64,000 nt of DNA from Escherichia coli. Its GTDB lineage: Bacteria > Pseudomonadota > Gammaproteobacteria > Enterobacterales > Enterobacteriaceae. The position numbers were made by a program, and so were the translations under genes. The notes under the pieces are model-generated. The model worked only from the letters and a program-made list of their open reading frames with translations. It was not told the DNA's origin and searched no databases. The stretch's first letter is position 1. Each line of letters begins with the position of its first letter. Shown in pieces: positions 11,268 through 21,869 of this stretch. The stretch is from assembly GCF_050920415.1 (NCBI RefSeq), contig NZ_CP169309.1; one strand, given 5' to 3'.

Positions 11268-12095
11268 TTAGCCGCCGAACTGGTCGGGATCGGGGCCGAG
11301 GCGTTTGCCCTGGTCGAGTTTGGCAATTTCACCTAGCTCGTCTTTGTCGAGACGGAAATCCCAGACATCAAAGTTTTCGGCAATACGTGAAGGTGTGACC
11401 GATTTCGGGATCACCACCAGGCCGTTATCCAGATGCCAGCGGATAACAATCTGCGCCGGGGTTTTGCCGTATTTATCTGCCAGATCGCGAATGACTTTCT
11501 GATCGAAAACGCCTTTCCCTCCTTGCGCTAATGGGCTCCAGGATTCGGTCTGGATTTTGTGTGTCGCGTTCCAGGCGTGAAGCTGGCGTTGCTGCATCAG
11601 CGGGTGGAGTTCAATCTGGTTTATCACCGGCGTCACGCCAGTTTCATCAATCAGGCGTTGCAGGTGGTGGATCTGGAAGTTGCACACGCCGATGCTTTTG
11701 ATTAAGCCCTCTTTTTGCAATTCGATCATGCCCTTCCATGCTTCGACATAATGGTCGATAGCAGGAACGGGCCAGTGCATTAAGTAAAGGTCGACATAAT
11801 CAAGCTGGAGTTTTTTCAGGCTGTCGAGCAGGGCTTCGCGGGGGCGCTTGTGGTCGTCGTTCCACAGTTTAGTGGTGATGAACAGTTCTTCTCTGTTAAC
11901 TGAGGCATTTTTCAGGGCTTTGCCGACACCTTCTTCGTTCTTATAGGCCGCGGCGGTATCAATCGAGCGATAACCCACGTCTAACGCTTTTTGAATGGCA
12001 GTGATTACTTCCTCATTACTTGCTTGCCAGACGCCCAGTCCCAGCTGGGGCATGACATTGCCATCCTGTAGCTTAATAACGGTTGGATTAGCCAT
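11268..12095 (-). CDS. dkgA: 2,5-diketo-D-gluconate reductase A / methylglyoxal reductase (aldo-keto reductase)
   Basis: 275-aa ORF; aldo-keto reductase family; synteny with yqhD and yqhC. Confidence 0.92.
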   Translation of the reverse strand: MANPTVIKLQDGNVMPQLGLGVWQASNEEVITAIQKALDVGYRSIDTAAAYKNEEGVGKALKNASVNREELFITTKLWNDDHKRPREALLDSLKKLQLDYVDLYLMHWPVPAIDHYVEAWKGMIELQKEGLIKSIGVCNFQIHHLQRLIDETGVTPVINQIELHPLMQQRQLHAWNATHKIQTESWSPLAQGGKGVFDQKVIRDLADKYGKTPAQIVIRWHLDNGLVVIPKSVTPSRIAENFDVWDFRLDKDELGEIAKLDQGKRLGPDPDQFGG

Positions 12096-12199
12096 ACGTT
12101 CCTCCTTTATATGAACTCACCGGAGCTGGCTCCGGTGAGGTGTTGTGAACTTAAGTCTGGACGAAATGCCCGAAAACGAAAGTTTGAGGCGTAAAAAGC

Positions 12200-13363
12200 T
12201 TAGCGGGCGGCTTCGTATATGCGGCGGCTGACATCCAGCGTAATGTCATGATTTTCACCCAGTTGGGTCATACCGTGCTCTTCCAGTTTTTTCAACAAAG
12301 CCGGGATGGAGCTGCCGTCCAGACCGTAGTCGGAGAGGTGGGTCGGCACGCCTAATTGCTCAAAGAAATTGCGGGTTGCGGCAATCGCGGCGTCAATACG
12401 CTCATCGTCAGAACCTTCTGTGATGTTCCAGACGCGTTCAGCATATTGCAGCAGTTTAGCGCGTTTAGTGTCGCGTTTCTCATTCCACAGTGCAGGCAGG
12501 ACGATAGCCAGCGTTTGCGCGTGATCCAGACCGTGCATCGCAGTCAGTTCGTGGCCCAGCATATGCGTTGCCCAATCCTGGGGTACACCTGCGCCAATTA
12601 AACCGTTCAGCGCCTGAGTCGCCGCCCACATAACGTTGGCGCGTACATCGTAGTTTTCTGGCTCTTTCAGGGCTTTCGGACCATCTTCGATCAGCGTCAG
12701 CAAAATGCCTTCTGCGAAACGGTCCTGAATTTTGGCATCAACCGGTTTGGTAACATACTGTTCCACGGTGTGCACAAAGGCATCCACTACACCGTTAGCC
12801 ACCTGACGCGGCGGCAGAGTGTAGGTATAAACCGGATCGAGCACGGCAAATACCGGCTGAACATGGGCAGAATGGAACGCCTGCTTGTCGCCTGTAGTTT
12901 TACGGGAGATGACCGCACCTGCGTTGGATTCTGAACCGGTTGCTGGCAGCGTCAGCACACAGCCCATCGGGATGGCGCTTTTAATCTCTTTACCGCCCGT
13001 TTGTAGAATGTGCCACGGATCGATATTTTCCGGATAATTAGCCGCTGCGGCGATAAATTTGGTGCCGTCCAGTACAGAACCGCCGCCAACCGCCAGCAGG
13101 AAAGTCACTTTTTGTTCGCGAACCAGTTTCACGGCATTCATCAGCGTTTCATAAGCCGGGTTTGGCTCAATACCGCCAAATTCCAGCACGTCCATGCCTT
13201 TCAGGGCATCCAGAACTTGATCGAGAACGCCGGTTTTTTTCACGCTGCCGCCGCCGTAGGTAATCAATACGCGAGCATCGTGAGGAATTTGTTCGCGTAA
13301 ACCAGCGATTGCGCCTTTACCAAAAAGAATGCGGGTTGGGGTGTGCAGATTAAAGTTGTTCAT
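12200..13363 (-). CDS. yqhD: NADPH-dependent aldehyde reductase (iron-containing alcohol dehydrogenase family)
   Basis: ORF-track ORF is 395 aa; start moved to internal Met ([10 protein letters not shown]) to give the known 387-aa YqhD. Confidence 0.92.
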
Positions 13364-13499
13364 TACTTGCTCCCTTTGCTGGGTCAATATGAGGGCAGAG
13401 ATCGGTCTGCCTGATGTTTTTCATTGTGGTCGCCAGCGCCTTACCTCTCAATGCTCATTTCTGCCAATGTCTTGCCTATTTCTCCAGAGTGCTGGAGAA

Positions 13500-14456
13500 A
13501 TGCGACAAAATTGCGCACAATCAAATTGCCGCATTATTCCTAAGAAATTACGCGATATGAAACGTGAAGAGATTTGCCGCTTGCTGGCGGGTAAAGTTAA
13601 TAAACTGAAAAATAAAGAAAATAGTTTGTCAGAGCTATTGCCCGATGTGCGTTTGTTGTATGGCGAGACGCCTTTCGCACGTACGCCGGTGATGTACGAG
13701 CCCGGCATCATAATTCTCTTTTCTGGGCATAAAATCGGTTATATCAATGAACGCGTGTTTCGTTATGATGCCAATGAATATCTGCTGCTGACGGTGCCGT
13801 TGCCGTTTGAGTGCGAAACTTATGCCACGTCAGAGGTACCGCTGGCAGGGTTGCGTCTCAATGTCGATGTTTTGCAGTTACAAGAGCTGTTGATGGACAT
13901 TGGCGAAGATGAGCATTTTCGGCCGTCGATGGCAGCCAGCGGGATTAACTCTGCCACGTTATCAGAAGAGATTTTATGTGCGGCGGAGCGGTTACTCGAT
14001 GTGATGGAGCGACCGCTGGATGCGCGTATTCTCGGCAAACAGATCATCCGCGAAATTCTGTACTACGTGCTGACCGGACCTTGCGGCGGCGCGTTACTGG
14101 CGCTGGTCAGTCGCCAGACTCACTTCAGCCTGATTAGTCGAGTGCTGAAACGAATTGAGAATAAATACACCGAAAACCTGAGCGTCGAGCAACTGGCGGC
14201 AGAAGCCAACATGAGCGTATCGGCGTTCCACCATAATTTTAAGTCTGTCACTAGCACCTCGCCGTTGCAGTATTTGAAGAATTACCGTCTGCATAAGGCG
14301 CGGATGATGATTATCCACGACGGCATGAAGGCCAGTGCAGCAGCGATGCGCGTCGGCTACGAAAGCGCGTCGCAATTTAGCCGTGAGTTTAAACGTTACT
14401 TTGGTGTGACACCGGGGGAGGATGCGGCAAGAATGCGGGCGATGCAGGGGAGTTAA
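13500..14456 (+). CDS. yqhC: AraC-family transcriptional activator of yqhD-dkgA
   Basis: C-terminal AraC HTH region; start chosen at internal ATG (MRQNCAQ...) to give 318 aa, matching YqhC. Confidence 0.85.
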
Positions 14457-18022: not shown

Positions 18023-18059
18023 TGATGCCCGGTTGCTTTTCGCAACCGGGCATTTTTTT
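18023..18059 (+). terminator. Rho-independent terminator downstream of exbBD
   Basis: 12-bp stem (atgcccggttgc / gcaaccgggcat) followed by a run of 7 T. Confidence 0.6.
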
Positions 18060-21751: not shown

Positions 21752-21869
21752 TAGGTTTATCTCTTACGGGATTACGTCTTAAACAAGCATGAAAAAATAG
21801 CGTGCGCAAAAGTCGTTCTTTGCCTAAAATATCGCTATATATGACAATATATAGCGAATGAGGTGAACG

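Follow-up and report, generated by a model that had tools for sequence, protein, structure and literature searches.

The yqhD-dkgA intergenic region

The genes yqhD (12200–13363) and dkgA (11268–12095) lie next to each other on the minus strand of the window, that is, of the whole 64,000-nt stretch of Escherichia coli DNA that was analysed. The gene identities, the shared strand and the assignment to a YqhC-regulated yqhD-dkgA operon, all of which had been proposed from the sequence alone, proved to be correct, and published work describes the two genes as one operon activated by YqhC. The region was matched in 5412 of 5426 complete E. coli genomes, with yqhD and dkgA as its annotated neighbours.

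The untranslated spacer between the genes is 104 nt long and reads, on the transcribed strand, UAAGCUUUUUACGCCUCAAA-[CUUUCGUUUUCGGGCAUUUCGUCCAGACUUAA]-GUUCACAACAC-[CUCACCGGAGCCAGCUCCGGUGAG]-UUCAUAUAA-AGGAGG-AACGU-AUG. In the direction of transcription, the following features were recognized in the spacer and behind dkgA:

12200–12202, minus strand: stop codon UAA of yqhD, followed by a conserved G(C/G)UUUUU (from the alignment)
12134–12197, minus strand: match to the Rfam family RF02753, ES173 sRNA (99 bits against a gathering score of 90, E = 1e-20)
12151–12182, minus strand: near-invariant 32-nt box, CTTTCGTTTT-N6-TTTCGTCCAGACTTAA (invariant columns of a 70-sequence alignment)
12140–12150, minus strand: C/A-rich unpaired linker GUUCACAACAC, with an ACA at 12143–12141 (from the sequence)
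12116–12139, minus strand: hairpin CUCACCGGAGC-CA-GCUCCGGUGAG (repeat finder, fold, covariation, single copy)
12093–12106, minus strand: ribosome-binding site of dkgA, AGGAGG (12106–12101), and its start codon AUG (12095–12093; from the sequence)
11222–11254, minus strand: operon terminator past dkgA, a hairpin followed by ACUUUU (sequence and a Term-seq 3′ end)

A small open reading frame in the spacer, or a readthrough extension of YqhD, was considered and rejected, as the length differences between spacers are not multiples of 3 and the substitutions show no codon periodicity. A scan of the spacer found no sigma-70 promoter consensus. The box matches neither a promoter nor a terminator consensus, and inspection by eye revealed no convincing sigma-54, sigma-32 or sigma-E match in it. 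The TAAGTT of the E. coli box might serve as a -10 element but lacks a conserved T at -7, and an internal promoter is unlikely.

The palindrome folds into a stable RNA hairpin

The original prediction described a perfect palindrome with 10-bp arms at 12117–12138, and we found it exactly there. The arms hold as claimed, but the repeat is in fact one base longer on each side: the repeat finder returned 12116–12139, with arms of 11 nt (12116–12126 and 12129–12139) that are 100% complementary around a 2-nt spacer. Since the two central bases are unable to close an RNA loop, the RNA folds into a 10-bp stem with the 4-nt loop CCAG (-17.8 kcal/mol). The hairpin is present in both the minimum-free-energy and the centroid fold of the yqhD-dkgA spacer, and the spacer as a whole folds with z = -4.5 relative to shuffled sequences. 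No T tract follows the palindrome on either strand, as had been noted (the tails are TTCATATA on the minus strand and GTGTTGTG on the plus strand), and a terminator scan gave no match at the palindrome. In E. coli, 9 nt separate the end of the stem from the dkgA Shine-Dalgarno sequence downstream.

By itself, the palindrome is only mildly unusual. For perfect inverted repeats whose arms are 11 nt or longer and lie 0–8 nt apart, first-order Markov resamples predict 0.25 per 64 kb, and the window holds four such loci. The weight of the hairpin derives from its conservation; the palindrome alone would carry little. The window is in general richer in such inverted repeats than chance predicts; others with arms of 10–11 nt or more and short spacers are located at 21832–21857, 18025–18055, 56197–56225 and 9559–9582, the last one directly after an open reading frame that ends at 9548.

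A query with the hairpin gave one match within the window and a median of 2 places per E. coli genome. Because the adjacent box gives a median of 1 place per genome, the two places presumably reflect the palindrome matching itself on both strands. The hairpin is a single-copy element unrelated to the REP consensus, which places it outside the multi-copy REP/BIME and ERIC families. In K-12 it lies at 3156579–3156602. The loop variant of the window, CCAG (12127), is rare, with 45 of 5412 E. coli genomes matching a 40-nt hairpin query at 99% or above; K-12 and most other E. coli strains carry CCUG.

The helix is maintained across Enterobacteriaceae

To follow the spacer beyond E. coli, a collection of species-representative genomes was scanned with DkgA. 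The matches listed comprised 80 loci from more than 25 genera (including Escherichia, Salmonella, Citrobacter, Enterobacter, Lelliottia, Leclercia, Kosakonia and Phytobacter as well as Trabulsiella, Buttiauxella, Atlantibacter, Siccibacter, Yokenella, Superficieibacter and Pluralibacter), and yqhD was directly upstream of dkgA at every one of these 80. Loci of Klebsiella, Raoultella and Cronobacter were added by way of YqhD. A hairpin was present at the equivalent position in all 82 distinct spacers examined, in 74 distinct sequences. Over these 82 spacers its dimensions were as follows:

Box-to-stem distance: 0–13 nt, median 9 nt
Stem-to-Shine-Dalgarno distance: median 9 nt, interquartile range 7–10
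Stem length: 7–19 bp, median 11
Loop length: 3–12 nt
Folding energy of the hairpin: median -17.8 kcal/mol

In a plain MAFFT alignment of 70 sequences, not fitted to any structure, six core pairs were recovered, five of them with compensatory changes. A covariance model with the full stem was then built from this alignment and all loci were realigned to it. In the realigned set 90.3% of the cells were paired, compared with 73.5% in column shuffles (none of 500 shuffles reached the observed value), and changes on both sides of a pair were seen at 10 of 11 pairs (152 cells, 38 expected); as the realignment is fitted to the structure, these pairing and covariation figures are somewhat inflated. 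When the 3′ partner was slid by 1–3 columns as a control, pairing dropped to 20–61%. The eleventh, outermost pair is not conserved.

The exchange of one arm together with the other is visible by eye in the raw sequences, for example in the arm pairs CUCACCGGAG/CUCCGGUGAG, CAUCGCCGGAG/CUCCGGCGAUG, CCAUCGGGGG/CCCCCGAUGG, UACCCCGCAG/UUGCGGGGUA and CUUAGCG/CGCUAAG. Within Escherichia, variation is limited to the loop (CCAG, CCUG, CUUG, CAGG) and to the apical pair in one EPEC strain. Conservation across Enterobacteriaceae had been suggested as a check on the palindrome, and the stem is indeed retained beyond E. coli by means of compensatory changes. The hairpin is under selection and, judging from the aligned sequences, the selected property is the helix, neither its sequence nor its loop.

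Natural variants of the spacer

Several genomes carry rearranged versions of the spacer. ERIC-like or other insertions of about 85–135 nt separate the hairpin from the Shine-Dalgarno sequence at four loci, and one locus has such an insertion inside the box. At two Buttiauxella loci (L071 and L076) an unrelated palindromic unit stands in place of the hairpin, one Buttiauxella genome has two hairpins, and at locus L067 two hairpin copies flank an insert of about 165 nt. Palindromic or ERIC-like insertions at varied points of the spacer were noted at loci L046, L047, L074, L079, L071, L076 and L067 (upstream of position 2501).

In Klebsiella and Raoultella (L082–L085, at about 4180–4225), the stop codon of yqhD is immediately followed by an additional strong hairpin with UUUUU after it, and the box is retained downstream. 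This extra hairpin has the look of a canonical terminator placed inside the operon. In the same genomes the conserved hairpin is less stable, with 7 bp and -7 to -10 kcal/mol. The free loop, the replacement in Buttiauxella and this weaker stem argue for a generic function of the hairpin.

Outside Enterobacteriaceae, the yqhD and dkgA homologues of Proteus mirabilis (L089, 3656–3688) are 27 nt apart and have neither box nor hairpin between them, and in Aeromonas caviae (L088) yqhC-yqhD is followed by G+C-rich palindromes and no dkgA. On comparison of these loci, the spacer with box and hairpin is an addition made within Enterobacteriaceae. Both records are filed as plasmids, yet they are of chromosome size.

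ES173 and the near-invariant box

The ES173 match exceeds the gathering threshold of its family and begins 3 nt past the stop codon of yqhD and reaches 6 nt into the hairpin's 5′ arm, so that only these 6 nt of the hairpin fall inside it and 18 of its 24 bases lie outside the ES173 model. No other Rfam family matched in the region. ES173 was originally found by deep sequencing of E. coli, and it shares both locus and strand with the hairpin. The two differ in what is conserved. In the 70-sequence alignment the stems of the Rfam model are 82% paired, which matches the 81% expected from shuffles, and show hardly any compensatory changes; these stems are conserved as sequence without covariation support, which the hairpin has. 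The start of ES173, right after UAAGC and at UUUUU, resembles the RN|WUU cleavage preference of RNase E, which may point to that enzyme.

The box forms the core of the ES173 match and is the less ordinary part of the spacer. It is near-invariant across more than 25 genera, kept as strongly as the Shine-Dalgarno sequence, while the segments around it are saturated with substitutions. Each E. coli genome has one copy, identical in 5370 of 5412, and there is no second copy within the window. The alignment indicates conservation of the box sequence but does not demonstrate conservation of a structure. Pairing of the box RNA with the start region of yqhC was considered and dropped: the 12 bp with one bulge that can form in E. 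coli are lost in other genera.

Transcript ends and expression of the operon

Published data place transcript boundaries close to the hairpin. In Table 1 of Sauert et al. (PMC5001579), dkgA is listed among the MazF-processed mRNAs, with its cleaved ACA at a distance of 47 nt from the start codon, and such processed mRNAs are said to be associated with polysomes. Coverage profiles recorded under mazF overexpression gave the dkgA site, which is not among the sites confirmed by primer extension (PMC5001579). Applying the counting of the table, in which an ACA directly before AUG has the distance 2, we infer that the -47 site is C12142 of the ACA at 12143–12141 in the linker. The processed dkgA mRNA would then start with CAC and continue into the stem, the cut lying 3 nt 5′ of it. 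This linker ACA is absent in Salmonella, Atlantibacter, Buttiauxella and Klebsiella, and as it is missing in several genera, cleavage by MazF cannot be the conserved function. A transcript boundary near the palindrome had been named as something to look for; two adjoin it, the end of the ES173 match at 12134 and the MazF-dependent cut at -47, which corresponds to 12142.

In Term-seq data from K-12 grown under three conditions, neither a 3′ end nor a Rho-dependent region was reported within 3156400–3157299 (PMC7815308). The same study gives a 3′ end after dkgA at K-12 position 3157494 (PMC7815308 supplement), which corresponds to about 11224 in the window. The Term-seq conditions were non-inducing and the operon was poorly expressed in them; the lack of a 3′ end there means that 3′ ends protected by the hairpin are not plentiful when cells are unstressed. 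No entry for the locus appears in the supplements of Ettwiller 2016, Yan 2018 and Kim 2012, and no transcription start site was found in the supplements searched.

Under vanillin stress YqhD was increased 35-fold and DkgA 41-fold (PMC6561319). RNA polymerase reads through the hairpin.

Weighing the explanations

The earlier description left two possibilities side by side, a protein-binding palindrome and an RNA-processing hairpin, and the data strongly favour an RNA hairpin: the stem is kept by compensatory changes and adjoins transcript boundaries, while the arms differ from genus to genus. A site for a dimeric protein is expected to keep its half-site sequence and its spacing. The perfect dyad symmetry and the CCGG core conserved in many genera would suit a DNA operator for YqhC or another dimeric regulator, but with 74 distinct sequences, covarying arms and an inter-arm distance that ranges from 3 to 12 nt, no constant half-site is seen. 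Moreover, gSELEX with purified YqhC returned a single genomic site, which lies elsewhere, in the yqhC/yqhD spacer (PMC8249747), and an operator flanked by co-transcribed genes, in a stretch where no promoter consensus was found, has no obvious target; we consider an operator extremely unlikely. It is quite unlikely that the hairpin acts as a pause hairpin or a leaky intrinsic terminator and thereby reduces transcription of dkgA below that of yqhD. The hairpin resembles a Rho-independent terminator in being a G+C-rich stem-loop downstream of a stop codon (10 bp, -17.8 kcal/mol), U makes up 4 of 8 nt in the E. coli tail UUCAUAUA, and the genuine dkgA terminator likewise has only four U. It differs in that a U tract is not conserved (over the 82 spacers the 8 nt past the stem contain a median of 2 U, and in many genera 0–1), the consensus scan gave no match, no 3′ end was mapped to it by Term-seq and the downstream gene is induced in parallel with yqhD instead of being reduced. 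The hairpin could also have no selected function and be a quasi-palindrome whose perfection is maintained by template-switch mutation as the DNA replicates. Mutation by template switching is known to produce seemingly compensatory changes in quasi-palindromes, and perfect palindromes occur several times in the window. Against such neutral upkeep stands the fact that all 82 spacers have a hairpin in the same place while their other unconstrained parts have become saturated with substitutions, as well as the replacement of a lost hairpin by another one in Buttiauxella, which makes this explanation very unlikely.

A role in translation, in which the hairpin insulates or presents the ribosome-binding site of dkgA or acts as an operator for an RNA-binding protein, would explain why in most genera the stem ends 7–10 nt before the Shine-Dalgarno sequence despite the variable sequence in between, and the hairpin-led dkgA mRNA made by MazF is among those associated with polysomes. 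Folding, however, speaks against insulation: the predicted probability that the Shine-Dalgarno sequence is unpaired was 0.31 with the natural hairpin and 0.31, 0.32 and 0.31 in controls with either arm scrambled or the hairpin deleted (all p > 0.3). The insertions of about 85–135 nt tolerated between hairpin and Shine-Dalgarno sequence at four loci and the free loop and stem sequences, which speak against a specific binder, also make a translational role unlikely. Translational coupling through pairing of the segment after the yqhD stop codon with the Shine-Dalgarno region was rejected separately (-7.79 kcal/mol for cognate and -7.76 kcal/mol for swapped partners, permutation p = 0.59; z = -0.17 against shuffles). 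It is doubtful, too, that the hairpin supplies the 3′ end or the structural part of a larger functional RNA that contains the invariant box, either a processed intercistronic sRNA (ES173, with the box as its seed) or a cis-acting leader that controls dkgA separately. Such an RNA would account for a box conserved across more than 25 genera as strongly as a Shine-Dalgarno sequence and for the constant box-to-stem spacing (median 9 nt). ES173 is also curated in Rfam as an sRNA, Proteus, which has neither box nor hairpin, suggests that the module was added in Enterobacteriaceae, and Klebsiella retains the box downstream of a terminator-like hairpin. On the other hand, the hairpin has no U tail like those of Hfq- or ProQ-type sRNAs, Term-seq shows no 3′ end for ES173, the stems in Rfam lack informative covariation and no other Rfam family matches, and other genera do not retain the complementarity that the E. 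coli box has to the yqhC start. That box and hairpin form a riboregulatory module specific to Enterobacteriaceae and inserted into an older yqhD-dkgA pair, acting in trans as ES173 with a seed or in cis as a leader for separate control of dkgA in aldehyde stress, is likewise improbable.

A putative nuclease barrier between two cistrons

The hairpin is real and is an ordinary kind of element. The explanation that we favour, and to which we give about an even chance of being right, is that it serves as a sequence-independent nuclease barrier, a processing and stability boundary between the two cistrons. A barrier is what its structure, conservation and position, the read-through and the nearby RNA ends most likely point to. 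According to this model, the palindrome would be transcribed within the YqhC-activated yqhD-dkgA mRNA and would fold into a stable G+C-rich stem-loop, and endonucleolytic cuts would fall in the single-stranded A/U-rich or C/A-rich stretches that flank it. The hairpin could then halt 3′-to-5′ exonucleases and so spare the upstream part with yqhD and ES173, or it could come to lie within about 3 nt of a new dkgA 5′ end and shield that end from 5′-end-dependent attack.

Protection of the upstream part may be indicated by the accumulation of ES173 RNA just upstream and by the weaker stem of those genomes that have a second hairpin upstream, and the anatomy of the locus, by analogy, recalls that described by Dar and Sorek. 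Stable stem-loops without U-rich tails protect the 3′ ends of E. coli RNAs from PNPase and RNase II (Dar and Sorek 2018, PMC6061677). Our hairpin shares with that class a stable G+C-rich stem-loop after a coding region, the lack of a U-rich sequence and the importance of the helix. It differs in that no steady-state 3′ end or Rho-dependent region was reported at the hairpin under three non-inducing conditions, and in that its place is within an operon, with the next ribosome-binding site starting 9 nt further on, unlike protective stem-loops at 3′ ends. The Rfam boundary of ES173, which falls inside the 5′ arm and not past the hairpin, also counts against the anatomy of a 3′ barrier. Older examples of intercistronic stabilisers are the REP hairpins, such as that between malE and malF; in contrast to them, the present hairpin occurs in a single copy and has no relation to the REP consensus.

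Protection of the downstream part may be suggested by the boundary at -47, which precedes the stem by 3 nt, by the exclusion of most of the stem from ES173 and by the lack of a Term-seq 3′ end. Stabilising stem-loops at the 5′ terminus, of the ompA type, were reportedly described by Emory, Bouvet and Belasco in 1992 as protecting against 5′-end-dependent decay. A dkgA mRNA that starts at C12142 would resemble them, with 3 unpaired nt followed by a 10-bp stem. The likeness has its limits, as the sole mapped 5′ end of dkgA was deduced from coverage under mazF overexpression and its ACA is not conserved.

YqhD and DkgA are the main NADPH-consuming aldehyde reductases and limit tolerance to furfural and vanillin, and their genes are routinely deleted or overexpressed in engineered E. 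coli. If the barrier model is true, the conserved boundary would set the relative dosage of YqhD and DkgA, and constructs that copy or delete the spacer would be affected. The locus also offers a clean natural example of selection for a helix as such, with 74 sequence variants and one structure, and it places the uncharacterised Rfam sRNA ES173 in an anatomical context that can be tested.

Observations on the neighbouring yqhC-yqhD region

A further perfect palindrome with two 10-nt arms, ATTTCTCCAG-CACT-CTGGAGAAAT, is located at 13478–13501, overlaps the start codon of yqhC and is conserved across genera. Its arm ATTTCTCCAG resembles ATTTCGTCCAG of the box, and we considered the box as a second site for a protein that binds this palindrome. 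The idea fails, since the palindrome shows no matching change in the taxa in which the box differs (Leclercia-like taxa, Buttiauxella and Kosakonia); a profile search of the yqhD promoter with the box gave no match.

The yqhC-yqhD spacer contains a long conserved stretch, GGCAAGACATTGGCAGAAATGAGCATTGAGAG. Finally, a sigma-54 site was detected by ChIP-seq inside yqhC, in antisense orientation and 438 bp upstream of yqhD (PMC4591121); its K-12 position, 3152925 in U00096.2, corresponds to about 13800–13950 in the window.
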